From: Methanothermobacter marburgensis str. Marburg | GTDB taxonomy: Archaea > Methanobacteriota > Methanobacteria > Methanobacteriales > Methanothermobacteraceae | Direction of reading: 5' to 3' | DNA: 32,000 nucleotides | NCBI RefSeq assembly: GCF_000145295.1 | Contig: NC_014408.1 | Location: 1,350,001-1,382,000 of the forward strand | Part shown: positions 1 through 31,229 of the stretch, in pieces | Layout of the letters: each line of letters starts with the position of its first letter | How positions within the stretch are numbered: the stretch's first letter is position 1 | Notes under the pieces: model-generated | What the model was told of the DNA's origin: nothing | Databases searched by the model: none | The model's input: the letters and a program-made list of their open reading frames with translations, nothing else | Program-made: the position numbers and the translations under genes

Positions 1-2074
1 CTTTCTGTATTGTTTCCGGTTTGTTTGCAAAATCAAGTATGAATGTATCGTTTTTGTTTTTCATGATCCGGTTGACCCTGTTAAGTGTCTGAACTGCTGC
101 GATACCATTAAGCGGCTTATCAACATACATGGTATGTAATAATGGCTGATCAAATCCAGTTTGGTACTTATTTGCAACAATCAATATTCTGTATGGATCC
201 TCCTCAAAAGCATTCTCTATTGATTTAGATGGAGGGATATCGTTCATTGACGTCTCAGTATACTCCTCACCATCATGCTTGACCGTGCCTGTAAAAGCAA
301 CAAGCGTTTTTATAGGGTAATTCATCTCCCTGATGTATTTATCAAATGTTTTCTTGTACTGCACTGCGTGTAGGCGGGATCTTGTTACAACCATTGCCCT
401 TGCTCTGCCACCAATCTTGTGGATAGTAGAGTTCATGAAATGATCCGCCATTATCTCCGTTTTTTTCCTTATTGAATGGGGGTGTTCCTCAACGAACTTA
501 CGTAATACTCTTTTAGCCTTCTTTTCTTCAAATTCTGGATCTTCTTCCACCGTCTTAATCAAATTGAAATATGTCTTATATGAAATGTAATTTCTGAGAA
601 CATCAAGAATGAAACCTTCTTTGATAGCTTGTTTCATTGAGTAAACATGAAATGGACGGTATTCCCCATACTCATTTCTTGTCCCAAACATTTCAAGTGT
701 TTTGTTTTTTGGTGTGGCTGTAAATGCAAAGAAGCTCACATTTTTAAGATCTCTAAAAGATTCTATTTCATGGAGTAGTTCCATTTGAACGTCATTACTT
801 ACATCGTCAATTAAAGCCGCTTCTTCAAGGCTTTTAACACTTAATACCTGCTTCATCTTCCTGGCAAGAGAACCCGACTGGCTTGAATGTGCCTCATCTA
901 TTATAACTGCATACTTTCTCTTTGGGAGATCTCTTACTTCCTCCATTACAAAGGGAAACTTCTGTAGAGTCGTCACTACAATGTTACTTCCCGTTTTGAG
1001 GGCCTCGGCAAGCTGATGGGAATCCCTATCAATTTTTTCAACTATCCCAATCCGCCTCTCAATTGCCTTTATCTGGTCTTGTAACTGGCGATCTATAACC
1101 CTCCTGTCTGAAACAACAATTACCATGTCATATATTCTCTTGTCAAATGAGTCAAACTTGTTTAGTAATCCATGTGCCAACCATGATATTGTCTTGGTTT
1201 TGCCACTTCCAGGACTGTGCTGTATAAGGTAATTTTGACCCGGCACTGATTCGTCAAGTAATCTGTCAACACATTCCAACTGGTGATACCTTGGAAATAT
1301 TACTGTCTCATTACCCGTCCTCACATTTTTTTCCACGAAGATGAAATTGTTAATAAGTCTTGAGAGCTTGTTGACCTGTAAGATGTCATTATAAAGGTAA
1401 CTCGTTTTGTAATCATTTTTCAGGGGCGGGTTTTCGAGACCCTTGTTAAAGGGCAGGAAGCGGGTATGCTCTCCTTCAAGTTTTGTTGTCATATATATTT
1501 TCTCATCACTCATGGCAAAGTGCACAAGGCATCGCTGGAATAATTTTTCATTTGGGTCCCTATCTTTCCTGTACTGATCCATCGCTTTTTCAACACCTTG
1601 AGTGAACGTATTTTTAAGTTCTATGGTGAGTATAGGTAGCCCGTTGATAAAAATTACAATGTCAAGGCGATCTTTTTTTCTCTCATGATATTGAAGTTCG
1701 TCAATAACTGAAAATATATTACTCTCAAATTTCATGAAAAGGTCGGGGTTACGGTTATTATTGGGCTTGGGGTAGAATAGTTTAAAATGGGCACCCGCCT
1801 CGTGAAATCCATTTCTGAGGAGATAGATAGTTCCTTTTCTTTCGAGTTCGGAAATGAGCCTATGGAAGAATTTCTTTGTTGCGTCTTCCCCATAAACTCT
1901 TTGCAATTGCTCCCACTGTTCCAATTGGGTCTCCATTATGAATTGTAGGGTAATTTCAGGGTCAATACAAGCTGTTTTATCATAGTTATGACTTTTTCTG
2001 CGCTGGTAGCCCGTGCTTAGAAGATAATTGATAATGTGCTCCTGAAATCTCTTTTCAGACGTATCAGTCGACAT
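1..2074 (-). CDS. hsdR: Type I restriction enzyme R subunit (HsdR), C-terminus cut by the window edge
   Basis: Absent from the supplied ORF track because it runs off the left edge. My minus-strand translation from the ATG at 2074-2072 reads MSTDTSEKRFQEHIINYLL... It has a PD-(D/E)xK-like motif RLDIVIFINGLPILTIELK, Walker A QHSPGSGKTKT (about 1196-1228) and a DEAH box VIIDEAHSS (about 887-913). All motifs checked are in one frame, and I saw no stop down to position 2. Confidence 0.9.
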   Translation of the reverse strand, partial: MSTDTSEKRFQEHIINYLLSTGYQRRKSHNYDKTACIDPEITLQFIMETQLEQWEQLQRVYGEDATKKFFHRLISELERKGTIYLLRNGFHEAGAHFKLFYPKPNNNRNPDLFMKFESNIFSVIDELQYHERKKDRLDIVIFINGLPILTIELKNTFTQGVEKAMDQYRKDRDPNEKLFQRCLVHFAMSDEKIYMTTKLEGEHTRFLPFNKGLENPPLKNDYKTSYLYNDILQVNKLSRLINNFIFVEKNVRTGNETVIFPRYHQLECVDRLLDESVPGQNYLIQHSPGSGKTKTISWLAHGLLNKFDSFDKRIYDMVIVVSDRRVIDRQLQDQIKAIERRIGIVEKIDRDSHQLAEALKTGSNIVVTTLQKFPFVMEEVRDLPKRKYAVIIDEAHSSQSGSLARKMKQVLSVKSLEEAALIDDVSNDVQMELLHEIESFRDLKNVSFFAFTATPKNKTLEMFGTRNEYGEYRPFHVYSMKQAIKEGFILDVLRNYISYKTYFNLIKTVEEDPEFEEKKAKRVLRKFVEEHPHSIRKKTEIMADHFMNSTIHKIGGRARAMVVTRSRLHAVQYKKTFDKYIREMNYPIKTLVAFTGTVKHDGEEYTETSMNDIPPSKSIENAFEEDPYRILIVANKYQTGFDQPLLHTMYVDKPLNGIAAVQTLNRVNRIMKNKNDTFILDFANKPETIQK

Positions 2075-2122
2075 TATGGATCCTCTCTTATGTACACAAT
2101 TATTTTTGTAATGTTTTAAAAT

Positions 2123-2983
2123 TTATCTCGGTTCATTTTTAATAAAATTACCAATTCTTGATAATTCATAGATAGCTGCTTTTAACACTTGTTCACAAAG
2201 CAAAGCTGTGTGTTTGTTTGGATAAAACTTATCCTCTAATTGTTTATATGGATGGATATAATTTCTAAAATCTCGTAAATAGTGACTAAATACTTTCACG
2301 TCCCTTTTTAAAAATCCTATTTCATAGGATACGTTAATTAAATCATTTAATTTCCATTTATCAAATTTCTTAACCTTACCATTTTTCTCCCGCGGCGATG
2401 AATTTGCTCTTCCATATTCTTCAGGATACTGAGAAGCTATCCCTAATAATATCCCCTCTAAAGTGCTGCCGATGAGAAAAATAGAAGCTAAATAAGCCTC
2501 ATTATTTAAACAGATACGGATCTCATTCATTCTTGAGTTAAGCATAGTCACAATATTTTCATCAAATCCCAATGAAAAAAAATCGGGGACATCAAATTCC
2601 CGCTGTAAAAAAAATTCTTCGCCGTTAGAACCAGTTTCCAGTGATTCATCTAATATAAACTTAGCTTTTTCGAATAATTTCCAATTTTTTTCATTGTCGC
2701 AATCATAGAGATATTCATAGTAGTCCAACAAATCTCTTAATAGTTTATGAACGGTAGCATCGGATTCTATATCCCAGAAACATCTTAATCTGTTTGCTTT
2801 TGAGTGACTAGGATAACCCAATTCGTCACATGCTTTTTCATAATCCTCATCAAAAATATCTTTACCTACACTAGTTCTAACAAAATCTCGAAAGGTTTTA
2901 TTTGAAAAGTCTAAAACATAGCCTGTCTTCATGTTAAATAACTTTTCAAATATTTGTCTTTGTAATTTATTTAAGGTCGACAT
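2123..2983 (-). CDS. HEPN-like protein embedded in the type I R-M operon (putative R-M-associated RNase / abortive-infection effector)
   Basis: 286-aa ORF. Its start overlaps the hsdS stop by 17 nt, and its stop lies 48 nt before the hsdR start. The C-terminal helical region carries LRDFRNYIHP (R237...H244 = Rx6H, nt 2252-2275). The N-terminus has GYVLDFSNKTFRDF and SKANRLRCFW, which I recall from Abi/HEPN-type defence proteins. No P-loop is present. Confidence 0.6.
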   Translation of the reverse strand: MSTLNKLQRQIFEKLFNMKTGYVLDFSNKTFRDFVRTSVGKDIFDEDYEKACDELGYPSHSKANRLRCFWDIESDATVHKLLRDLLDYYEYLYDCDNEKNWKLFEKAKFILDESLETGSNGEEFFLQREFDVPDFFSLGFDENIVTMLNSRMNEIRICLNNEAYLASIFLIGSTLEGILLGIASQYPEEYGRANSSPREKNGKVKKFDKWKLNDLINVSYEIGFLKRDVKVFSHYLRDFRNYIHPYKQLEDKFYPNKHTALLCEQVLKAAIYELSRIGNFIKNEPR

Positions 2984-4274
2984 TTTTACCGACTCTTTCT
3001 TTCACATCAACTTTTCCTGTGACAAGGTGATAAATGAGCGATTTCTTGTATTCCTTAAGAAGATCAACATTTTTTTGGATTTTTTTGGTTGTCAAATTAA
3101 TTTTTGAACTATTTTGATCCAAATAACTAACAATAATTTTCTGTTCCTTAAGAGGCGGAACTTGAATTCTTAAGTTTTTAATTACATGCTGGCTAATATT
3201 CGGCTGCCCTCCACCATCACTTAAAGATATGATATTATCTCTATTACTAAAAAACCAATAGAAAACAAACTTAATGTCTAATATATTACTGTTTGACAAT
3301 ACACAACAAGCTTGATTGACACAAGCATCTATGTTAAGTAAAGATATCTTTCCAATTGTAGCGCCATACATGGCAACTATTAAGGAATTCTTCTTATAGA
3401 TTTTTAGAGCACTATAGTCCCTCAAAGCTTTTTTTGTGATCCTTTTTGATGTTTCATTTAAAATAGAATCATTTAAATCCCCAGTAATGACCCAAGGGAT
3501 GGTGCCTCTATTATAATAACTTCCATCTTGAGATTTGGGCGTTGTTCCACTGCCAATAATCTCAAAACTTCGAGATATTTTTCTTAATTCCCAATTTTGA
3601 GGAATTTCACCAATCCACTTAACACCAGAATACTTCATTTTTACATTAGGATTCAGACCTTTCGTCACCGCCTGATTTATTAATGCGTTTCTTTTTTCTT
3701 GTAAAAGATCGATAAGTCGAGTATACTTCTCTATTGTTAGATCAATTTTAGATATCTTGCTATCTAGAAAGGACGCTATCTTCCTTTGTTCTTCTAAACT
3801 AGGGTATGGGATTCTAATAGTTGCCAATACATTATCTTTAACATGAGGAATACCCATCCCCGTGGTCAAATCCTTCAACAAAGGCTCAAAAGCCTTGCAT
3901 AGATACTTTGAGTACCCCAGATCCATCTCTGACACAATTAATTTAACCATTGTGGACGATAAATAACCGTCTTTGCCTTCTAAGAACTCTCCAGCATTTG
4001 AACCATCCCATAACAACAACAAATCCCCATCATTAACCCTAACAGCACCTCCATCAGAATCACAGTAAAAAACCTTAGATTCTCTTCCTCTCAGATAATC
4101 CATAGTAAGATACGGAAGAGAATCCCCAGATGGAGTCTCTCGAAGATCTTTAGGAACCTTTCCTTTTATATACTTAAAATGGATTTTAAACCTGTGCACA
4201 TTCCACCCACAAGGTATCTCACCAATCCACTCAACACCAGAATCCTTATATTCAGGGTAAGGTTTTAAATTCAT
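2967..4274 (-). CDS. hsdS: Type I R-M specificity subunit (HsdS), two target-recognition domains
   Basis: 435 aa with the internal duplication typical of HsdS. YKDSGVEWIGEIPCGWN matches YSGVKWIGEIPQNWE. There are two conserved coiled spacer regions (LEEQRKIASFLDSKISKIDL... and LKEQKIIVSYLDQNSSKINL...). Confidence 0.92.
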   Translation of the reverse strand: MNLKPYPEYKDSGVEWIGEIPCGWNVHRFKIHFKYIKGKVPKDLRETPSGDSLPYLTMDYLRGRESKVFYCDSDGGAVRVNDGDLLLLWDGSNAGEFLEGKDGYLSSTMVKLIVSEMDLGYSKYLCKAFEPLLKDLTTGMGIPHVKDNVLATIRIPYPSLEEQRKIASFLDSKISKIDLTIEKYTRLIDLLQEKRNALINQAVTKGLNPNVKMKYSGVKWIGEIPQNWELRKISRSFEIIGSGTTPKSQDGSYYNRGTIPWVITGDLNDSILNETSKRITKKALRDYSALKIYKKNSLIVAMYGATIGKISLLNIDACVNQACCVLSNSNILDIKFVFYWFFSNRDNIISLSDGGGQPNISQHVIKNLRIQVPPLKEQKIIVSYLDQNSSKINLTTKKIQKNVDLLKEYKKSLIYHLVTGKVDVKERVGKNVDLK

Positions 4275-4293
4275 GAAAAACTACTCCCAAACC

Positions 4294-6309
4294 CTAATCA
4301 TCCAGATCATCCTTTATAAGTTCCAAGATCTCACTAGTCAATTTCTGGATATCACTATTAATATCCTCTAGAGATCTTGGAGGTTTATACTTGTAAAAGT
4401 ACTGGTTGAAATTTATTTCATAACCTATCTTATCCTTTTTTCGATCCATCCAGGCATCCGGATAATATGGTAAGACTTCTCTTTTGAAATACTCATCGAT
4501 ATCCTCCTTTAGGGGTATCCTCTCAGTATCCCTTAACTTAGGATCAGGTTTTATATTACCCCTCGTATCAGTAACATAGTCAGCAGTTTCATCATGTTCA
4601 GAAAGGGCATGTATAATATTTCTTATAAAGGCGTTTGAAAGTTCAAAATTTTTCAGGGTCCTTTTAACTTCCTTTTCAAAATCCTTCCAGTTTTTATAGT
4701 GGCCATTAATTTTCTGGAGCGCCCTAATAATGTCTAACTGCAATTTTTTCCCTTTCTCCTCCTCAATCATTCTCTTCTCAATATTTTTATTCTTGCTCTC
4801 AGCCAATTTTCTGAATGCATTCATAGAGTATAGATTCTGCAGTCGCTCTTCAGTCACTTCAAAGTTCAGTTGCATGGGTCTTTCTACAGTGACCTTTACG
4901 TAACCAAAGTCATCGTTATCAAATATTTTAACCATATCGTTTTCACTGAAGTTTCTGTAGAAAGTAAGAATATCGTCTATATCCCTGTCACTTAATTGGT
5001 GTCTCTTCTTACCAAGACTTTTTCTCATCTTCACGTACTTGGAGGATGCATCTATTAGCTGTATCTTACCAATCCTATCAGGGGACTTCTGATTTGTCAG
5101 GATCCATATGTAAGTCCTTATGCTCGTGTTATAGAATAACTGATCTGGAAGACCTATAATGGTCTCCAGATAATCATTTTCAATTATCCATCGCCTGATG
5201 TTACTTTCTCCAGACCCAGCATCGCCTGTGAATAGGGGTGAGCCATTTGTAATGACGGCTATTCTGGATTTTTCATCATCCTTCATCTTTGATAACATGT
5301 GCTGTATGAAAAGAAGCTGCCCATCTTTTATTCCAGGGAGTCCTGCTCCAAATCTCCCATCAAATCCAAGTTCAGCTTCCTTTTCAACAACCTCTTTATC
5401 TTGCTCCCATTTACGACCGTAAGGAGGGTTTGATATCATAAAGTCAAATTTTTCATCCTTTAACTGATCATCAGAAAGAGTGCTTGATGGTCCCTTTATA
5501 TTTTCAGCGCGCTCGCCCTTAATAAGCATGTCCGCCTTGCATATTGCATATATCTCTTCATTAATTTCCTGACCATACAGTACCACATCAATCGTGTCGT
5601 TTATCTCCCTTACAAAATTCTTACAACTTGTTAACATGCCCCCTGTTCCACACGCAGGGTCGTATATCTTCTTAATGAGGTTCTTTTCCTTCAGATTCTC
5701 TCCATTCTCCAAAAAAAGAAGATGAGTCATGAGCTTAACAACATCACGTGGCGTGAAGTGTTGTCCCGCCTCTTCATTTGACTGTTCGGAGAACCTCCTG
5801 ATGAGTTCCTCAAAGATGATTCCCATATCATGGTTGGATATCTTATCCGGATGAAGGTCAACCTTGGACTCTGAAAATTTCTTTATGAGGAGGTATAAAA
5901 GGTTGGCCTTTGAAAGTTTCTCTATATGCGTTTTGATGTAGAAGTTTTCAAAGATGTCCTTAACATTTGGGCTGAAACAGTCCAAATAGTGCATAAGATT
6001 CTCCTCGATATGATCAGGGTCTTCAAGGAGGGATTTAAAGTCATATTTTGAGTAGTTATAAAATCCAAGCTTTCTTCCATCTTTATCGACGGCAGCTGCC
6101 TCTAAAATGGGATCAAGATTTTCTATCTTATCTTTATATTCGTTGTACTTTCTTAGGACATCATCTTTTGAGTGTTCTAGAACGCAGTCAAATCGTTTTA
6201 AAACTGTGAATGGGAGTATAACCTTTTGGTATTCGTTTCTTTTGTATGTGTCCCTCAGTAGATCAGCTATGTCCCATATAAAAGATACTATGTCCTGATG
6301 GTTTTCCAT
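4294..6309 (-). CDS. hsdM: Type I R-M N6-adenine DNA methyltransferase subunit (HsdM), long form
   Basis: 671 aa. It has an HsdM N-terminal helix (IVSFIWDIADLLRDTYKRNEYQKVILPFTVLKRFD), SAM motif I DPACGTGGML, catalytic motif IV FDFMISNPPYG and a C-terminal KIGYEINFNQYFY module. Confidence 0.95.
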   Translation of the reverse strand: MENHQDIVSFIWDIADLLRDTYKRNEYQKVILPFTVLKRFDCVLEHSKDDVLRKYNEYKDKIENLDPILEAAAVDKDGRKLGFYNYSKYDFKSLLEDPDHIEENLMHYLDCFSPNVKDIFENFYIKTHIEKLSKANLLYLLIKKFSESKVDLHPDKISNHDMGIIFEELIRRFSEQSNEEAGQHFTPRDVVKLMTHLLFLENGENLKEKNLIKKIYDPACGTGGMLTSCKNFVREINDTIDVVLYGQEINEEIYAICKADMLIKGERAENIKGPSSTLSDDQLKDEKFDFMISNPPYGRKWEQDKEVVEKEAELGFDGRFGAGLPGIKDGQLLFIQHMLSKMKDDEKSRIAVITNGSPLFTGDAGSGESNIRRWIIENDYLETIIGLPDQLFYNTSIRTYIWILTNQKSPDRIGKIQLIDASSKYVKMRKSLGKKRHQLSDRDIDDILTFYRNFSENDMVKIFDNDDFGYVKVTVERPMQLNFEVTEERLQNLYSMNAFRKLAESKNKNIEKRMIEEEKGKKLQLDIIRALQKINGHYKNWKDFEKEVKRTLKNFELSNAFIRNIIHALSEHDETADYVTDTRGNIKPDPKLRDTERIPLKEDIDEYFKREVLPYYPDAWMDRKKDKIGYEINFNQYFYKYKPPRSLEDINSDIQKLTSEILELIKDDLDD

Positions 6310-6478
6310 TAAAGCACCGCCACAATTTTTTCATGTGTTATTATTGATTTCAATGATATTACAAAGCATGAATTATCTCCTATCTAAAATGGAATCCAAG
6401 GTGTGTGTCAGTAAATCATCGACCTGAACAACATATAAACTGCAATCTACAGTCTGTAGTTATTAATCAGTTAGTTTA

Positions 6479-7027
6479 TTACTTTTTTAATTTTTCTAAT
6501 TGGCGTCTAGCGATTTTTGCAACTCGTTCCTCACTTTTTGCAATATGAAGCCACGTTTTTTTGCTGAAATTGCAGTATGGACAACGTATATCATACCAAT
6601 AAAATTTATCAACCTGCTCTAAGTCGGTTTCGCATTTTGGACATCTAGGACCTTCAATATTAACAAGCCTTTCATTTACTTGACTGCGATTTACTGGGTT
6701 GGGAGTCCTTATTCTCCATAGTAGTCCATCATATCTCAATTCAAAATTAACAACCCATCCCATTGCAGATCCAGCTGCATATGGATGAACCATATATCGC
6801 ATCCTCCTGCGGATGAAGACTGTGATAATCCATACTGTTATAAGTATTATTGAAAATTGGCAAATCATGTTTGAGTAAGAATAAACAAATTTTAGATTAA
6901 ATCTTATTAAATGTGAACAAAGAAAGGGGGCGACAAAACTAAAGATTGCTGCCACAAGAGGAGAACAATAGCTAGTAATTAAAATTTCTTTTATGTTCAT
7001 CTTTTTTTCTCCCAAGAGCCATGTCAA
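6479..7027 (-). CDS. Membrane-anchored Zn-ribbon protein, function unknown
   Basis: 182-aa ORF. Two hydrophobic helices (LVAAIFSFVAPFLCSHLI, FSIILITVWIITVFI) precede a soluble domain with CPKC-x16-CPYC. The start may instead be the ATG at 7000 (MNIKEIL), which is preceded by GGGAGA. It has island composition and the same strand as the R-M operon, 169 nt upstream of hsdM. Confidence 0.6.
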   Translation of the reverse strand: MTWLLGEKKMNIKEILITSYCSPLVAAIFSFVAPFLCSHLIRFNLKFVYSYSNMICQFSIILITVWIITVFIRRRMRYMVHPYAAGSAMGWVVNFELRYDGLLWRIRTPNPVNRSQVNERLVNIEGPRCPKCETDLEQVDKFYWYDIRCPYCNFSKKTWLHIAKSEERVAKIARRQLEKLKK

Positions 7028-7236
7028 CTTAACTATTCTCTTCGAATTCTATATCTACTAGTTTAGAATATAACATCTACTAACTTAAATATGTTTAAGT
7101 ATTGTGAAAGAGCTTACATATGTCATGTCATTTTTATAAGCGAAAAGTATCAGTATTAACATTCAGAGGCTATGAAGAAATGTGTAAAGTTTGTATTTAA
7201 TCGATTGGTGTTTCCATGCCAGAGGACCTATTTTAA

Positions 7237-7330
7237 AGTAAAAATCCCAATTTGGTCTGATTTCAAGAAATAATTGCAGAAACGACGTGATTGTACTTGT
7301 ATTTTCAATCCCAATTTGGTCTGATTTTAC
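7237..7330 (-). CRISPR. Orphan mini-CRISPR: 2 repeats (30 nt) and 1 spacer (34 nt), no cas genes in window
   Basis: Repeat 7301-7330 is attttcaatcccaatttggtctgattttac. Repeat 7237-7266 is agtaaaaatcccaatttggtctgatttcaa, with an identical 20-nt core atcccaatttggtctgattt and degenerate ends. The spacer is 7267-7300. On the minus strand the intact repeat ends in GATTGAAAAT, like the archaeal ATTGAAA-type 5'-handle. It resembles the 30-nt repeat I recall from Methanothermobacter arrays (from memory, unverified). An AT-rich leader-like stretch at 7331-7437 lies on the side of the intact repeat. Confidence 0.65.
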
Positions 7331-7587
7331 TTTAATACAATATGTAACTATAGTCTTATATATTTATTGAACTGACATGTTAAGTTAATGACCCGCATAA
7401 AAAACTTATAAAAGATTTTTTTCAGAGTAATAAATGAAAACTCAGGTTAACCGAGACGTTCTCACACCATCTACAGAAAGATTTTCCACCCAACCCCTCT
7501 TTCATTATAAACCTTCTTGAACGGTCTGTCTCCAGGTTTAAGATTGTTCTTGAAGAACTATTCCAGACAGGCCCCATCCACAGGGAA

Positions 7588-8619
7588 ATGCGCTCCAGGA
7601 GAGATTACCATGGTTCAAGGCTCTACACTGGCTCATCACTGAATCTATCACCCTACAGGATCTACATTAAAAGCTGGCATGACCATGAAACCATACTCAA
7701 CAGGATGATATCCCAGACAGCATATTACCTTATGTGCGCAGCTGAACTTGTGGGTGGAATGGTTGATGGTGAAAGGTCTGAATTATGCCAGACTCTCTTC
7801 AGATCAGCGGCTGGAATCATGGACAGGTACCATCTCTGGGCCTTTTTCACCATCGATATTCTTGAGGAATCAAAGATCCTTGAACGACTAATATCAGAGG
7901 GAAACAGGCTTTACAATGAAATTTACAGCATCTTCCGGATGATAAGGGACACTGTTATTTACCTCAACCTCATCCACCCTCTGCAGGGGGATGGAGTGGA
8001 GATGCCCCTTCAGGAATTTTACAGTATATATGAACTCTGGGCGATCTCAAGAATATGGGATAAATTCCGCCAGATGGGATTTCATATTAAATCTGTTGAA
8101 AAGGCGCTTTCACATCTTCCATCATCGAAAATATCCATCAGGATGGAAAGGGGCAATGAAAGTGCCACGATAATATGGGAAGTGAAGCTAAATGCAATTG
8201 AACACTCAACCTACTATGGTGACCTCCTGCAGGCTCTCGGAGGAGGTGGAAGTGTTATAAAACCCGATATAACCGTTCTCTATGAATCTGAAGGTCATAA
8301 GAGGGCTCTGGTGGGGGATGTTAAGTTTTCAGTTACAGATACCGGACTTCCCCGACTTGAATCCATCTATAAAGTTCTCAGTTATGTGGAGGATCTCAGA
8401 AAATCCCCCCTGTTCAGAGGATGGGATCTTGAGGGGCTCCTGGTATACCCTGGAATGGTGAGCCCAGTTAGCGTTCCCTCCTCACTCGTTGCATACCAAT
8501 TTATACTATCGATTATACTAATGGTGAGCCCAGTTAGCGTTCCCTCCTCACAGAGTGGCAGCCATATCCATGTTTTTCCGCTTAACACATCAAACAGGGA
8601 ATTTGGGGTATTTGGTTAA
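7588..8619 (+). CDS. PD-(D/E)xK nuclease-fold protein (McrC/DUF2357-like guess), probably 5'-truncated and carrying an in-frame 66-bp insertion
   Basis: 343-aa ORF. The nuclease-like core is VIKPDITVLYES...ALVGDVKFS (D...D-x-K). The same frame stays open without any ATG/GTG/TTG back to a TGA at 7435-7437, reading ...LLERSVSRFKIVLEELFQTGPIHRE before M1. MVSPVSVPSS is duplicated 22 codons apart. Confidence 0.55.
   Translation: MRSRRDYHGSRLYTGSSLNLSPYRIYIKSWHDHETILNRMISQTAYYLMCAAELVGGMVDGERSELCQTLFRSAAGIMDRYHLWAFFTIDILEESKILERLISEGNRLYNEIYSIFRMIRDTVIYLNLIHPLQGDGVEMPLQEFYSIYELWAISRIWDKFRQMGFHIKSVEKALSHLPSSKISIRMERGNESATIIWEVKLNAIEHSTYYGDLLQALGGGGSVIKPDITVLYESEGHKRALVGDVKFSVTDTGLPRLESIYKVLSYVEDLRKSPLFRGWDLEGLLVYPGMVSPVSVPSSLVAYQFILSIILMVSPVSVPSSQSGSHIHVFPLNTSNREFGVFG
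8454..8551. repeat. Perfect 32-bp direct repeat flanking a 34-bp AT-rich insert (period 66 bp) inside a CDS
   Basis: aatggtgagcccagttagcgttccctcctcac occurs at 8454-8485 and 8520-8551. The insert 8486-8519 is tcgttgcataccaatttatactatcgattatact. The structure can equally be read as a 30-bp duplication plus a 36-bp insert. Confidence 0.95.
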
Positions 8620-9384: not shown

Positions 9385-9422
9385 GATATCAAACCTCACC
9401 TACTACCCCCAATTTCACCATA

Positions 9423-12172: not shown

Positions 12173-12182
12173 GGTGCATGGT

Positions 12183-14171
12183 ATGGAGAATGCAATCAGG
12201 AGGATCAATGACCTCATTGATGAGAGGAGAGAGGAGGATACCCTATCACTCATCAGGGGTATGGAAGCAGGGGACCATATCTGCATCATATACGATGATG
12301 AGGCTGAGTGGAGGAGGATCATTGTTCCCTTCATCATCGAGGGCCTCAGGAGGGATGAGAGGTGCATATACATAGCCAGCCAGAGGACATGCGAAACCAT
12401 CAGGGAGGAGCTCGGCAGGAAGATCCCTGTTTCCATGTTTGAAGCCGGAGGGAGCCTCAGGATAATGAATGAAACTGAGGCTTACACAGAGGGGGGTTTC
12501 TTTGACCCTGAAAGGATGCTTGACCTCCTTGAATCCGAAACAGAAAATGCGGTTGCCGAGGGCTTCACTGGCCTCAGGGTTACCGGTGAAATGAGCTGGG
12601 TCCTCAGGGGCCTCCCCGGGAGCGAAAGGCTGATAGAGTATGAGGCCAGACTCAACAATTTCTTCCCGGGATCTGACTGCCTTGCCATCTGCCAGTACCA
12701 CAGGCAACTCTTCAGCCCCGATGTGATCAGGGGAGTCCTGCTCACCCACCCCATAGTTGTCTGGAACTCAGGTGTGTACAGAAACCCATACTATATAAGC
12801 CCGGAGCTTATCCTCAGCGGTGAAGAATGTGAGAGGGAGGTGGATAACTGGCTCGAGAATATAAAAAGGGAGAATGAACTTTTAAGGTCCCTTGAAAACA
12901 TCAAAAAGCTCTATGATGAGTTCATAAACCACAGTCCATGGATAGTGTTCCTCAAGGATTTCAGGTCAAGGTACGTGATTGCAAACAGCAGGTTTTCAGA
13001 GCTTGTGGGAACAGAGGATATCACCGGAAAGACCGACTTTGATCTGATGGACAGAGAGGCCGCTGAGGCCTGCCTTGAGTCCGACAGGATTGCCCTGAGG
13101 GACGGTGAATCCTACACTGAGGAGGAAGTTAAGGGCAGGGTCTACGGGGTATACAAATTTGGTTTTAAGCTGCCCGATGGTAGAAGGGGTGTCGGTGGCT
13201 TTGCAGTTGATATAACACAGAGAAAGGTGTATGAGCGGGACATTGAAACCTCGAGGAACAACTTCTTGGGTATCGTTGAGAACAGCCCGGAGCCCATGGT
13301 GATAGTGGATCTGGATGGCAAACTCCTCTACTCAAACCCTGCTGGCAGAAAGTTCTTTGGCTGGCCCCCCGATTACAGGGGTGGGCACATCGGAGTACCC
13401 CTCAGGAGGGAGATACCGGAGATCAGGGTCCTTTCTGCTGACGGCCAGGTGCGGGTGGCTGAGATGATGGTGACAGACACTGTCTGGGAGGGCAGAAAAT
13501 CCCTCCTTATCAGACTCCATGATATAACCAGGCTCCGTGAATATGAGATTTCCCTGAAGAGGTCCCTCAGGGAGAAGGAGGTGATGCTCAGGGAGATACA
13601 TCACAGGGTCAAAAACAACCTCCAGATAATATCCAGCCTCCTTAACCTCCAGAGATGCTCTATCCAGGATGAGAGGGCTGCCGACGTATTCACCGATAGT
13701 GTTAACCGTGTCAAGTCCATGGCCATGATACATGAGAAACTGTACCAGTCAGAGAGCCTTGCTGACCTACCATTCTCAGAGTACATAATTGACCTCGTAT
13801 CTGAGATAAGGTCAAATTATCCTGAAAAAAGGATATCGGTTAATTACGATATGGAGGACATTCACCTGGATATAAACAGGGCCATACCGGCAGGTTTAAT
13901 AGTCAACGAGGCCGTCACCAACTCCATGAAGCATGCGTTCAAATCAGGTGAAGGTGAACTCATCATACGCCTATTTTCGAGGGAGGGCATGGTCCATGTG
14001 GAGGTTGAGGATGACGGACCCGGTCTTCCAGCGGACTTTGATACAGATACCAGCGGCGGCCTTGGCATGGATCTTATGAGGAACCTTGCATCGCAGCTCG
14101 ATGGTGAACTCAGAATCAGGGGGGATGATGGCGTGCGGGTGAGCCTTGTTTTCCCGGCACAGAAAAACTGA
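12183..14171 (+). CDS. Sensor histidine kinase: MEDS domain + PAS domains + HisKA_2/HATPase_c
   Basis: The ORF runs 12174..14171. I prefer the ATG at 12183, 5 nt after GAGGTG. The N-terminus has the MEDS-like GDHICIIYDDEAEWRRIIVPFIIEGL. There are PAS-like segments in the middle. The H-box is EIHHRVKNNLQIISSLLNLQ, and ATP-lid motifs are NEAVTNSMKHAF and DDGPGLP...GGLGM. Confidence 0.9.
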   Translation: MENAIRRINDLIDERREEDTLSLIRGMEAGDHICIIYDDEAEWRRIIVPFIIEGLRRDERCIYIASQRTCETIREELGRKIPVSMFEAGGSLRIMNETEAYTEGGFFDPERMLDLLESETENAVAEGFTGLRVTGEMSWVLRGLPGSERLIEYEARLNNFFPGSDCLAICQYHRQLFSPDVIRGVLLTHPIVVWNSGVYRNPYYISPELILSGEECEREVDNWLENIKRENELLRSLENIKKLYDEFINHSPWIVFLKDFRSRYVIANSRFSELVGTEDITGKTDFDLMDREAAEACLESDRIALRDGESYTEEEVKGRVYGVYKFGFKLPDGRRGVGGFAVDITQRKVYERDIETSRNNFLGIVENSPEPMVIVDLDGKLLYSNPAGRKFFGWPPDYRGGHIGVPLRREIPEIRVLSADGQVRVAEMMVTDTVWEGRKSLLIRLHDITRLREYEISLKRSLREKEVMLREIHHRVKNNLQIISSLLNLQRCSIQDERAADVFTDSVNRVKSMAMIHEKLYQSESLADLPFSEYIIDLVSEIRSNYPEKRISVNYDMEDIHLDINRAIPAGLIVNEAVTNSMKHAFKSGEGELIIRLFSREGMVHVEVEDDGPGLPADFDTDTSGGLGMDLMRNLASQLDGELRIRGDDGVRVSLVFPAQKN

Positions 14172-14244
14172 ATGTTAAACTATTGCATTGTCCAAAAACC
14201 CAATTAAGTGACGATTTTCCCGGCACAGAAAAACTGAATGTTAA
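14149..14244. repeat. Perfect 30-bp direct repeat flanking a 36-bp AT-rich insert (period 66 bp), duplicating the histidine kinase stop region
   Basis: ttttcccggcacagaaaaactgaatgttaa occurs at 14149-14178 and 14215-14244. The flanking bases differ on both sides. The insert 14179-14214 is actattgcattgtccaaaaacccaattaagtgacga. Copy 1 contains the last 7 codons plus the TGA at 14169-14171. Confidence 0.97.
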
Positions 14245-14783
14245 GGAGAGGTAATGTCCTGAAGATCGACGTTGATGTTCACACCAGGACCATCATCTCC
14301 TGTGAATGTGACCTCATCCCATGACCATGAGGACGTTGACGTGTACACCAAAAAAACCATTAAATCGGACCTCCCGGTGATCCTCCAGCGGCTGTCAGTG
14401 TTGTGGCCGGGATCCCTGATGTCCCTCAATACTGTTTCTTGCCGGCGGACTTCTTCTGGCGAGTGGTTTCATGCCGACCAATTAAAGAGGGGCGGCATAT
14501 GGTTGTAAGTAAGTCTGTTTTCATCTATCTTTTACCTTCTCCATTAAGAACCTTCAGTGCTGCTTAGCCGGTACCACGTCTCTTATGGTTGTCACCATGC
14601 CCTATCATGTGCGTACCTTTCATGGAGGGTTGATCCGTGGACCAGGAACCCCTGACGTCCTGGAATGAAGAGCTGGTCCCGGAAAAATCCCCTTGAAACT
14701 CCACAGGGCACTTCACCGAACTATTCCCTGCTCTGGAAAATGATAAATAAGCCGGTTTACATATTAATTAGCCGGTGAGGTGC

Positions 14784-17777: not shown

Positions 17778-18458
17778 TTGAGTTACTCCATAATTCCTAT
17801 GAGCGGCAGTGACATTCTTGGACTTCTGATGGTATATCTGTATGTTGCGGTTTTACTGATTGTATCCGAGAGGCTCCTTGGTGATAGACCAAACCTGAGC
17901 CGGAAGTTTGTACATATAATGGTTGGTAACATCCTATTTATATTACCCCTCTTTGATAGCCGGCTGGTTATAACATTCCTGGCGGCGGCACCATTCATAC
18001 CCCTCACATTCCTCATAAGCCCCTACTCACCACTGAAGATAAAGCACAGGGCTTCCTCCTATGGCCATGGCCTCGGCCTCGTCTACTACTCCGTATCCTG
18101 GACCGTGCTGGCCTACCTATTCTTCAACACCCCCTGGGTCACGGGTATAGGAATAGCCGCCATGTCCTATGGTGACGGCCTTGCAAGCCTTATAGGTGAG
18201 AGGTTCGGCAGGACAACATTCAGTGTACTGGGGGACAGGAAGAGCCTGGAGGGTTCCCTTGGGATGTTCCTCACCCTCATGGTGACGCTGCCCGTGGTCC
18301 TAATCTACTACTCACAGAACATTACCCCGGTTATCATACTGGGGGTCGCCCTGGTATCAACGGTACTGGAGGCCCTCACCCCCCGGGGCCTTGACAACCT
18401 GACAGCATGCTTCGGGGCAGTTGCAGCCTACATAATCCTCGGGGGAATGTCTGTTTGA
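17778..18458 (+). CDS. CTP-dependent polyprenol (dolichol/phytol) kinase / cytidylyltransferase family membrane protein
   Basis: 226 aa, polytopic. It carries SRKFVHIMVGN, YGDGLASLIGERFGR and LEGSLGMF motifs. The start is TTG, or the ATG at 17799. Confidence 0.7.
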   Translation: MSYSIIPMSGSDILGLLMVYLYVAVLLIVSERLLGDRPNLSRKFVHIMVGNILFILPLFDSRLVITFLAAAPFIPLTFLISPYSPLKIKHRASSYGHGLGLVYYSVSWTVLAYLFFNTPWVTGIGIAAMSYGDGLASLIGERFGRTTFSVLGDRKSLEGSLGMFLTLMVTLPVVLIYYSQNITPVIILGVALVSTVLEALTPRGLDNLTACFGAVAAYIILGGMSV

Positions 18459-20814: not shown

Positions 20815-21921
20815 GTGTTTCAATTGGATAAGATAAAGATTGCAATAGTCGGTGTGGGAAACTGTGCCAGCTCCCTGATTCAGGGGATATACTATTACCG
20901 TAACAAGGATGCCCGTGATTCAATAGGACTCATGCACTGGGATATTGGGGGTTACAGGCCAGGGGACATTGAGGTTGTGGCGGCCTTCGATGTGGATAAA
21001 AGAAAGGTCGGGAAAGACGTGAGTGAGGCCATATTTGCACCCCCAAACTGCACGACTGTATTCTGTGATGATATACCCGAGATGGGTGTTGAGGTATCCA
21101 TGGGGCACGTCCTTGATGGTGTGGCGCCCCACATGAAGAATTACCCTGAAGATCAGACCTTCGTTGTGGCAGACGCCGAACCCGTTGATGTTGTGGAGGT
21201 CCTCAGGGAAAGCGGGGCTGAGATACTACTCAACTATCTACCCGTGGGATCAGAGGAGGCTGCAAGGTTCTATGCTGACTGCGCCCTCGAGGCCGGGGTC
21301 GCCTACATAAACAACATGCCTGTCTTCATAGCCAGTGACCCTAAATGGGCCGCCAGATTTGAGGACAGAGGGATACCAATTGTTGGTGATGATATAAAGG
21401 CCCAGCTTGGAGCCACCATAACCCACAGAACCCTCGCAAATCTCTTCAAAAAGAGGGGTGTCAGGCTTGATCGGACCTACCAGATAAACACCGGTGGGAA
21501 CACGGACTTCCTCAACATGCTCAACCGTGACAGGCTTGACTCAAAGAAGGAATCCAAGACTGAAGCAGTTCAGTCAATACTGGGTGAGGAACGGCTGGAT
21601 GAGGAGAACATCCACATAGGCCCCAGCGACTACATACCCTGGCAGAAGGACAATAAGATCTGCTTCCTCAGGATGGAGGGCAGGCTCTTCGGGGATGTAC
21701 CCATGAACCTTGAGCTGAGGCTGAGTGTTGAGGACTCACCCAACTCTGCTGGATGCGTCATCGACGCCATAAGGTGCTGCAAACTCGCCATTGACCGTGG
21801 CGTGGGCGGAACACTTACATCAATATCAGCCTATACCATGAAACATCCGCCGGTGCAGTACACAGATGATGTTGCCGCCGGTATGGTGGATGAGTTCATT
21901 GAGGGTAAAAGAGAGAGATAA
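20815..21921 (+). CDS. myo-Inositol-1-phosphate synthase (archaeal type)
   Basis: 368 aa with the NAD-binding N-terminus [20 protein letters not shown], plus [10 protein letters not shown] and SPNSAG motifs. The start is GTG at 20815 or TTG at 20824. Confidence 0.9.
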
Positions 21922-22015
21922 CCCAATAATCTCAATTTCTGGATGGATCCAGAAAAAATCCTCAATCAAACTATTTTTATAAAAGGTTTATAAAAAGGAG
22001 TTATCTGGCTGAGGA

Positions 22016-24082: not shown

Positions 24083-24293
24083 AATTTTTATATTTTTACA
24101 CCATGGCCATAGCAGACACCTGCGGGTTCTGCTTCAATATGGGGCCAAATACCTACTTTTATGTCCAGGAGATTCCTCTGCATCCCTTAACTGGCATGTG
24201 GAATTGCACTCATCTATTTTCTCAGGACCCTTCTTCTATTTTTTATCCTGACCTCAGTATCAGCTGATTCAGGTAAATCCATGAAACAGCTGA

Positions 24294-24959
24294 TCAGTGA
24301 AGATCCCAGACCCGCTCAATCCATGATGACATGATGATGCAGCCAGCGGCCGTAAGTAAACCCTCAAGGAGGCCCCATGTTGCTGAATAGATCCCCATAC
24401 TCACCACTGACCTCATGATGGGGAATACACCTGCAGCCCCAAGCTGGATGCCTGTGAGGATACCTGCCAGCACATATGATGCAAAACCTGCAATGAATCC
24501 TGAAAGAACCCTCCTTCCCCCCGAACCCCCAATTGCCCTGCTGTAGATGTAGAATCCCAGGAAACACCCAGGAACCCCCATACCGATCATGTTTGCGCCA
24601 AGTGATGTTACTCCACCAAAGCCAAAGAAGATGGACTGTACAAGCATGACAGCAGACATGAGGATAAATGCCAGGAAGGGGTTTTTAAGGATTACTGAAA
24701 GCAGAGCGGCCCCGTTAAGGGTAAGCGGTACGCCGTAGGGTACAGGTATGCAGAAAGCCTGGATTAAGAAGATTAAAGGTGGTGCAGTTAACATGATCAG
24801 GAGATAACCTGTAAGGTTCACATCATGTGCTCCCTCATCCCTCTTCATGGACAGAAGACCCCTTATCACCCATGCGATGCTCAGGACGAGTACCGCAGTT
24901 GCAGTTACATTGTAGAAGACCAACTGCCAGGCAGGGATAAAACCATCAGGTATGTTCAT
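24294..24959 (-). CDS. CbiM/NikM-like ECF S-component paralogue, orphan (no cbiN/Q/O nearby)
   Basis: 221 aa, polytopic. The N-terminus is MNIPDGF, versus the canonical MHIPDG/MHIMEG. A stop lies immediately upstream in frame, so the start cannot be extended. Confidence 0.75.
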   Translation of the reverse strand: MNIPDGFIPAWQLVFYNVTATAVLVLSIAWVIRGLLSMKRDEGAHDVNLTGYLLIMLTAPPLIFLIQAFCIPVPYGVPLTLNGAALLSVILKNPFLAFILMSAVMLVQSIFFGFGGVTSLGANMIGMGVPGCFLGFYIYSRAIGGSGGRRVLSGFIAGFASYVLAGILTGIQLGAAGVFPIMRSVVSMGIYSATWGLLEGLLTAAGCIIMSSWIERVWDLH

Positions 24960-24964
24960 TCACC

Positions 24965-24980
24965 ATCACCTCAAGGTGAT
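24965..24980 (-). promoter_or_regulatory. 16-nt palindrome ATCACCT-TG-AGGTGAT containing the cbiM-like SD sequence
   Basis: The minus-strand mRNA sense reads atcaccttGAGGTGATggtgaATG. An AT-rich TATA-like tract (attatatta) lies immediately upstream at 24981-24989. Confidence 0.3.
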
Positions 24981-25131
24981 AATATAATATGAATACATAA
25001 AAAAGTATTCCTGGTTCTCTCATCTAGAGTCTGGGGTTAAGAAAAAACAGATGCCCCCCCGACCTTCCCTCAGTTAAAGAGCCTATGTCAAGAAAAAACT
25101 ATAATAAGCCTCCAGTGTGAGGTACAGCCCT

Positions 25132-30420: not shown

Positions 30421-30580
30421 GCCACAATACCAGTACTCCAATGACAATACTGGGTGTGTGGGGACCTGCAAGGATCAGCTGCAAGGCCACAATACCAGTA
30501 CTCCAATGACAATACTGGGTGTGTGGGGACCTGCAAGGATCAGCTGCAAGGCCACAATACCAGTACTCCAATGACAATAC
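30421..30580. repeat. R-S-R-S-R array: 30-bp unit x3 separated by two identical 35-bp units (65-bp period)
   Basis: R is gccacaataccagtactccaatgacaatac at 30421-30450, 30486-30515 and 30551-30580. S is tgggtgtgtggggacctgcaaggatcagctgcaag at 30451-30485 and 30516-30550. All copies are perfect. The array sits in the convergent intergenic region between upp and fumarase beta. Confidence 0.97.
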
Positions 30581-30627: not shown

Positions 30628-31134
30628 TCAATCGTGGACTGACCTTCCGCCGGCTGCCGCCACTATACCAGGTATCCCCTCAACCCTGAGCTCAAATATG
30701 GCCTCCATACCCTCCTCCTCGAATGCCGCGATTCTCCTTGATTTAATGCGGCTTGTGAGGAGTGCTGCAACAGGTGGTGTTACAATGAAAACCGCCCCAG
30801 CATCACCGAGTGCCCTGACGGTTTCATCCTTAAGTTTTCCCTTACCTATATGGACCAGCACCCCCCTTGATGCCAGGTAGGGCATGCTCTCCTCTATGTC
30901 CTCCTTGTTGCTGCTTGTGGGGGCTATCCCCGCCTGACTTACGGCCGTGTGCATTATCGCAGCACCCCTCACATCAAATGGCTCCTCACCCCTCTTAAGG
31001 GCATCCACAAGTTTAGGGAGCGCGGCATCCCTTCCAGTGTATATGATGCCATCTATGATAACACGGTCCCCGGGGCTGAGCCCCCCAAGTTCACCTCTGG
31101 TTGTGGGTGTAGATATCCTCATAATTACCACCAT
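30628..31134 (-). CDS. Class I fumarate hydratase / tartrate dehydratase beta subunit
   Basis: 168 aa. GIIYTGRDAALPKL, HIGKGK and AIFELRVEG fit the Fe-S hydrolyase beta-subunit pattern. Confidence 0.85.
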   Translation of the reverse strand: MVVIMRISTPTTRGELGGLSPGDRVIIDGIIYTGRDAALPKLVDALKRGEEPFDVRGAAIMHTAVSQAGIAPTSSNKEDIEESMPYLASRGVLVHIGKGKLKDETVRALGDAGAVFIVTPPVAALLTSRIKSRRIAAFEEEGMEAIFELRVEGIPGIVAAAGGRSVHD

Positions 31135-31180
31135 CCAGGATCCATTCTTTAACCAGCTGCAGATATCCTCATAATTACCA
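31111..31180. repeat. 20-bp perfect direct repeat (50-bp period) duplicating the fumarase-beta translation start region
   Basis: agatatcctcataattacca occurs at 31111-31130 and 31161-31180. Flanking similarity continues imperfectly (ccatccaggatcc versus tcaggaatcc). Confidence 0.9.
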
Positions 31181-31229
31181 TCAGGAATCCGCTTTAAGTT
31201 TCAGATCTTCAAGATCTGGTTTTAAATTC

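Follow-up and report, generated by a model that had tools for sequence, protein, structure and literature searches.

Cas1-Cas2, the adaptation integrase of CRISPR systems, joins a spacer to DNA by staggered transesterifications one repeat length apart, and gap repair then duplicates the intervening DNA around the spacer. In E. coli, off-target integration creates new repeat-spacer units (Nivala, Shipman and Church 2018, as reported in papers that cite it), and Cas1-Cas2 of Pyrococcus furiosus, which has a 30-nt repeat very similar to the one considered here, integrates in vitro at paired off-target sites 30-31 bp from each other (PMC6698737). The same origin has been proposed for isolated or orphan CRISPR arrays (Shmakov et al. 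2020, CRISPR J, as cited in other work), which lie away from cas genes, were found by repeat-based detection and usually have repeats like those of a cas-adjacent array. A preprint that cites the E. coli study describes the evidence for off-target integration in natural genomes as circumstantial only. Here, we examine a window of 32,000 nt from Methanothermobacter marburgensis str. Marburg (NC_014408.1, positions 1,350,001 to 1,382,000 of the forward strand), in which the end of a histidine kinase gene is duplicated around a short insert of spacer length (window positions 14149-14244). The window corresponds approximately to 1,350,007-1,382,006 of CP069376.1, the re-sequenced M. marburgensis Marburg genome, and coordinates given without an accession or contig are those of the window.

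An exact 30-nt direct repeat, TTTTCCCGGCACAGAAAAACTGAATGTTAA, is present on the plus strand at 14149-14178 and at 14215-14244, with a start-to-start distance of 66 nt. The bases on both sides of each copy differ, so the repeat length is unambiguously 30 nt, and in 32 kb an exact repeat of this length within 150 bp has a negligible probability of arising by chance (~1e-12). The first copy overlaps the end of the gene for a MEDS-PAS-HisKA_2-HATPase histidine kinase (662 aa, 12183-14171, plus strand), which lies downstream of kaiC and kaiB in an open reading frame (ORF) spanning 12174-14171. This copy is made up of two thirds of a Val codon, six full codons, the TGA stop codon and 7 nt; the kinase is left intact with the C-terminus ...VFPAQKN, and the second copy is a non-coding echo of the gene end. 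Between the copies lies a 36-nt insert, the presumed spacer ACTATTGCATTGTCCAAAAACCCAATTAAGTGACGA (14179-14214, plus strand, 36% GC), which has no second occurrence in the window (with up to 3 mismatches allowed) or in 2.13 Mb of related sequence. An earlier note, made from the letters of this DNA, had reported the same pair of 30-mers, their differing flanks and the unique insert, all of which were observed again. The derivation from neighbouring sequence that it had named as contrary evidence found no template in the window or in the related 2.13 Mb, and its statement that the first copy holds the last seven codons and the TGA is right for the TGA and one partial codon too generous for the rest. 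The structure is identical in the complete NCBI genome (L085) and in the Logan assemblies of four SRA runs (SRR22315765, SRR22315767, SRR22315769 and SRR35947640).

The site is found empty in relatives. In a Kamchatka Methanothermobacter metagenome-assembled genome (MAG; L001), which shares ~96% nucleotide identity with the window over 15 kb and is the sole close relative in the species-representative genome set, the orthologous site has one copy of the 30-mer without the insert and reads ...gttttcccggcacagaaaaactgaatgttaaggagaggtaatg..., which is literally the simple gene end that the earlier note had obtained by deleting one copy and the insert. A second assembly (GCA_041928885.1, L216) has a diverged yet clearly orthologous single-copy site, also lacking the 36 nt, as that note had predicted for related strains. 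Since the site is single-copy in both, the window has a 66-bp insertion consisting of 36 new bases and a 30-bp target duplication, and this insertion arose in the Marburg lineage after a few percent of divergence from its sequenced relatives.

The dimensions of the unit are those of the CRISPR arrays of the genus. A metagenome scan with the repeat core of a degenerate mini-array in the window (described below) gave 119 loci with 2,364 repeat copies, in which exactly 30 nt of the canonical Methanothermobacter repeat are conserved, as [A/C]TTTCAATCCCA[T/A]TTTGGTCTGATTT[T/C/G]AAC. The 2,257 canonical spacers are mostly 35 nt (188), 36 nt (546), 37 nt (569), 38 nt (498) or 39 nt (166) long, these five lengths making up 87% of the total, in agreement with the 30-nt repeats and mid-30s spacers that had been noted for the local CRISPR type. 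At 14149, the duplication equals the canonical repeat length and the 36-nt insert falls inside the bulk of the spacer lengths. The unit itself fails as a bona fide CRISPR array: it has two copies, consists of ordinary gene-end DNA and shows no significant likeness to the canonical repeat, and Rfam has no match to it or to anything else in the window.

Six further units of this kind bring the total to seven, all with periods of 65-68 bp, and a scan of ~2.1 Mb for exact, non-tandem repeats of 28-33 nt spaced 50-90 apart found them only at these periods. The second unit in the window (8454-8551, plus strand) is an exact 32-nt repeat (8454-8485 and 8520-8551) around a 34-nt insert with a period of 66; a chance match of two junction bases would make this 30 + 36. 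A hypothetical ORF gains 22 in-frame codons from this unit, and all homologues of the ORF are without these 22 aa. The empty site of the unit is seen at the DNA level in five relatives (L211, which is ~99% identical, L216, L217, L218 and L220). The third (30421-30580, plus strand) has three copies of the 30-nt repeat GCCACAATACCAGTACTCCAATGACAATAC and two identical 35-nt inserts, with a period of 65, and lies between the convergent upp and fumarase-C genes. The three-repeat form is also present in strain KEPCO-1 (L212), and the Kamchatka MAG (L214) has repeat-insert-repeat only, in which the second repeat and the insert each carry one substitution. Among the relatives, which show one or other of these two forms, there was no empty site, and five Logan contigs stop exactly at the final base of the first repeat, which confirms the boundary of that repeat. 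The third unit is older and was duplicated later in Marburg and KEPCO-1.

The remaining units were found in relatives. A 29 + 38 unit directly after queC is common to KEPCO-1 (L212, 6628-6723) and the Kamchatka MAG (L214, 407-502); in Marburg, the corresponding stretch (24263-25126) is replaced by a segment with cbiM (24294-24959), so that there is no empty allele of this unit in Marburg. A metagenome contig with Methanothermobacter-type DNA (Ga0078972_1007090, L102) has a 30 + 36 unit at 2371-2466. It separates cas1 from cas2 in a type I-B locus with the order cas3-cas4-cas1-cas2-leader-array, and the target duplicated there takes in the stop codon of cas1. The insert of this unit contains GATTTTAAC, the final 9 nt of the canonical repeat. 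Methanobacteriaceae archaeon Yes71-23 (L028) has two units, 29 + 36 and 29 + 39 (1901-1994 and 2784-2880), within 1 kb of each other in a polysaccharide locus, between epimerase and polysaccharide flippase genes; one of them duplicates a ribosome-binding site and ATG, and there are no cas genes in this 21-kb locus. The duplicated sequences and inserts of the seven units are mutually unrelated, and each insert is unique in the 2.13 Mb of related sequence. Their placement spares genes: the 14149 unit and that of L102 (at cas1) lie across a stop codon, those of L028 lie across or next to a start codon, the 8454 unit is in frame, and the 30421 and queC units are intergenic. This pattern suggests that selection filtered the insertion events.

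It is likely, then, that the 66 bp at 14149-14214 arose when a type I-B Cas1-Cas2, probably with the involvement of Cas4, integrated once at an off-target site. The off-target spacer acquisition that the earlier note had proposed is supported by the empty sites, by the 30 + 36 fit, by the non-local insert and by the recurrence of the same geometry at unrelated sites, and integrase genes are present in the sister strain KEPCO-1. In such an event, both 3'-OH ends of a 36-bp prespacer would attack opposite strands of the chromosome 30 bp apart, a spacing set by the built-in ruler of the integrase, which is its repeat length, and gap filling would copy these 30 bp on each side of the new spacer. 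The 30-bp target would have spanned the kinase stop codon by chance, which would explain why the kinase is unchanged and the second copy is a non-coding echo. The unit would now be an inert scar, as its repeats are presumably not Cas6 substrates and the strain is apparently without cas genes.

Several observations weigh against this origin, though they do not overturn it. According to the supplement of Kaster et al. (2011), Marburg is without 17 of the 18 cas genes of M. thermautotrophicus Delta H, including cas1, cas2 and cas4. The two Cas1b clusters of Methanothermobacter hold proteins of Delta H, KEPCO-1, K4 and DP and no Marburg protein, and a search for Cas1 homologues listed none from Marburg either, though organism labels there are sparse. 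A CRISPRone-based paper, contrary to Kaster et al., gives Marburg one cas gene cluster. The check for Cas1-Cas2 in the genome that had been suggested in the earlier note thus turns out partly to the disadvantage of its reading, in that Marburg seems to be without cas1 and cas2, and its sister KEPCO-1 has cas4-cas1-cas2. Moreover, the targets show no significant likeness to the canonical repeat in register at four sites (p = 0.12-0.54). For the 14149 target, there are 12/30 identities (p ~0.12), so that the earlier caution about a weak resemblance was justified and sequence specificity is unsupported; the only notable site is that of L102, with 16/30 at a +1 offset. The apparent duplication lengths span 29-32 across the units and are not 30 throughout, and the integrase is deduced from its product rather than observed acting.

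Nor was a protospacer or a protospacer-adjacent motif found for any insert among phages, plasmids, IMG/VR and canonical spacers, the whole Marburg genome being outside this search. The 36-mer of the 14149 unit gave chance matches only against INPHARED phages and PLSDB plasmids, and the other inserts and the mini-array spacer had no match in either. In IMG/VR, 18-20-mers from the inserts of four units and from the repeat core gave zero matches or matches with non-extending flanks (L086, L233, L234 and L235). One of these (L234) is a 20-nt match; the phage collection contains nothing related to it, and it was taken as chance. None of the 2,257 canonical spacers matches any insert. The comparison with viruses and plasmids that the earlier note had recommended therefore yielded no source in INPHARED, PLSDB or IMG/VR, and the GC content of the inserts (29-60%) lies within the range of canonical spacers and is uninformative on their origin.

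The simplest reconciliation of the scars with the apparent absence of cas1 and cas2 in Marburg is a recently lost adaptation module, since KEPCO-1 has cas4-cas1-cas2 and a degenerate canonical mini-array remains in the window. KEPCO-1 and Marburg are 96-98% identical in their shared region and have the three-repeat unit in common, and KEPCO-1 carries cas6-cas8-cas7-cas5-cas3-cas4-cas1-cas2 together with csm genes (I-B/III-A) from CP042937.1:1,138,183 onward.

Other ways of producing the unit were weighed against this origin. A polymorphic insertion with a precise target duplication would also fit a mechanism outside CRISPR, be it a mobile element of small size or the 30-bp staggered cut of an integrase or a transposase, leaving a short insert and a long duplication, and such a mechanism would suit a strain that has no cas1 or cas2 on record. 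It is nonetheless decidedly unlikely: in duplication length and period the unit agrees with the lengths of CRISPR repeats and spacers, and the seven inserts, 34-39 nt long, have no terminal inverted repeats and, being unrelated, are unlike an element family. The target duplication of IS630 is TA and that of casposons is ~14-15 bp, and we know of no element that yields a 30-bp duplication. A transposable element with target-site duplication was rejected on the same grounds, namely seven unrelated inserts that are each found once in the related sequence. Marburg does carry IS630-related 'IS-like elements', but the 15 of these reported by Kaster et al. are tied to the IS630 transposase and were not equated with the units. 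An error of replication or repair, in which template switching or microhomology-mediated repair made a short tandem duplication with junction filler, can draw on the ordinary tandem duplications that exist in these genomes (a 65-bp case in L001, 13250-13380) and on the duplication of the repeat-spacer unit at 30421. We regard it as very improbable, as filler insertions would not repeat a 29-30 + 35-39 geometry at seven sites, and the 36 nt at 14149 are unduplicated, are missing from the empty site and have no template in the window or flanks. A simple tandem duplication was likewise set aside, given that the 36 nt occur once and are absent from the empty alleles.

Two further explanations concern the state of the unit rather than its making. 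It might have been kept because it is transcribed and serves as a working neo-CRISPR or in regulation, such as in the form of a crRNA-like RNA or of an element in the 3'-untranslated region of the kinase operon. The unit is directly 3' of the kinase stop and hence probably co-transcribed, it is fixed across the Marburg-derived assemblies, and new arrays have already been suggested to originate from off-target integration. However, it has two repeats only, unrelated to the repeat recognised by Cas6, matches no Rfam family, is not conserved outside the Marburg lineage, where the sites are empty, and belongs to a strain seemingly without cas genes, so that a function of this kind is a shade less probable again than a repair error. 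An assembly or sequencing artefact is practically negligible. Short repeats are prone to mis-assembly, but the same form is found in the complete NCBI genome and in four independent SRA runs, which shows that it is no assembly artefact, and other strains have a clean alternative allele.

Off-target integration by Cas1-Cas2 thus remains our preferred origin, and it can be set beside the systems in which such events are described. As far as the citing papers describe the neo-CRISPR units of the E. coli type I-E system (Nivala 2018), the likeness is close: one repeat length of a non-CRISPR target is duplicated around an insert of spacer length, the targets are not bona fide repeats, and the product is two repeats with one spacer. 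Unlike these, which were obtained with over-expression, the Marburg units are natural and belong to an archaeal type I-B setting with a 30-nt ruler and 35-39-nt spacers; empty sites exist in the wild, the host apparently lost the integrase later, and one unit was later duplicated. With the P. furiosus reactions in vitro (PMC6698737), the units share a 30-nt repeat of a similar family (the reverse-complement consensus GTTAAAATCAGACCAAAATGGGATTGAAAT, to be compared with a GTTA start and an A-rich mid-repeat motif), as well as paired integrations into opposite strands of non-CRISPR DNA. The off-target sites of P. furiosus resembled the repeat, with GTT at positions 1-3, C at -3 and A17/A18, whereas here the resemblance is not significant in register, and the present cases are fixed chromosomal products that have been filtered by selection. 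Orphan arrays have the same proposed origin and also lie away from cas, but the repeats of the present units are ordinary gene sequence and would escape CRISPR finders. The three-repeat unit at 30421-30580 resembles the internal repeat-spacer duplications of the 8-kb array of M. thermautotrophicus Delta H (PMC1635066) in being one repeat-spacer unit copied by recombination or slippage between repeats, with the difference that the duplication here is in an off-target unit and not in a canonical array.

Events of this kind are already on record from experiments and have been put forward as the origin of natural orphan arrays. What is new is a natural archaeal type I-B set with preserved empty alleles, an in-frame case and a case between cas1 and cas2, as well as the later duplication of a unit and the apparent loss of the integrase from the host. 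Should the proposed origin be correct, ordinary genes of a model methanogen bear lasting scars of the adaptation integrase, and the insertions that survive are only those that spare gene function, at stop codons, in start regions, in frame or in intergenic DNA. The 30-bp ruler would hold without clear sequence specificity, and the scars could outlive the cas genes, so that a census of such units could gauge what adaptation costs the genome and bring extinct CRISPR systems to light.

The left part of the window may hold traces of such a loss. The degenerate canonical CRISPR remnant (7238-7331, no strand assigned) consists of two 30-nt repeats with the core AATCCCAATTTGGTCTGATTT and a 34-nt spacer, and is identical in L216-L220. 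It lies ~100 bp from a breakpoint at 7428, to the left of which is an AT-rich island (1-7427, 36% GC, no strand assigned) with a type I restriction-modification system (hsdS 2967-4274, hsdM 4294-6309), and to the right of which there is homology to a full-length neighbour gene (L211). This breakpoint truncates the hypothetical ORF at 7588-8619 at its 5' end in Marburg, to 343 aa as compared with ~490 aa in relatives, the homologues P0001-P0006 from Methanothermobacter and Methanobacterium having 456-512 aa; it belongs to a conserved uncharacterised family and has no Pfam match. In strain K4, a homologue of this ORF and cas1 are on one 722-kb contig, and from its coordinates the homologue in KEPCO-1 may adjoin the cas locus. 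Window positions 1-7800 take in the island and the mini-array as well as ~370 bp from the start of the truncated gene, and depart from L216 at only 3 positions, as compared with 1.5-3% divergence or more in the native DNA adjacent to the island in L216 and 11% in the kinase region. Since there are only 3 differences in 7.8 kb, the island is a recent arrival, younger than the events at 8454 and 14149, and its near-identity in Marburg and L216 points to a recent horizontal exchange.

The equivalent of window position 18077 is at 1,127,418 in KEPCO-1, and falling window coordinates run toward its cas locus, which is 10,765 bp away and would correspond to window position ~7300 under collinearity, the place where Marburg has the two-repeat remnant, the truncated gene and the island. 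From these coordinates, which are not an alignment of sequence, a replacement that removed the cas locus of Marburg at a time when the scars already existed is plausible, as is a clustering of the scars around the site of that locus. That the scars are the fossil record of a CRISPR-Cas locus since lost by Marburg, and are clustered around its former place, is a tentative proposal that we consider possible but rather doubtful; the units of L028 show that scars need not sit within ~20 kb of cas genes. If such clustering were real, off-target integration by Cas1-Cas2 would be strongly biased to DNA near its own genes, and scars could serve to find CRISPR-Cas loci that are now extinct and to date them.

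Other length differences and duplications were observed in the window and its relatives. As compared with L001, Marburg has 34 extra bp at 9386-9419, between ABC transporter genes; L001 has 72 extra bp at ~10490, upstream of kaiC, and lacks a 50-bp stretch at 14437-14486 that Marburg has and of which L216 has a diverged version, probably owing to a deletion in L001. None of these three indels has the repeat-insert-repeat form. The 65-bp full tandem duplication in L001 (13250-13380, 1 mismatch) is single-copy in the window (21920-21986). It begins with CCCAATAATC(C/T)CAATTTCTGAATGG and contains AATCCCAATTT, which is also found in the core of the CRISPR repeat, and its period of 65 may be coincidental. 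Finally, a 26-nt imperfect direct repeat with 2 mismatches and a spacing of 50 is present at 31108-31183, where it takes in the start codon region of a fumarase-C-like gene (30628-31134, minus strand); its geometry is unlike that of the CRISPR-like units.

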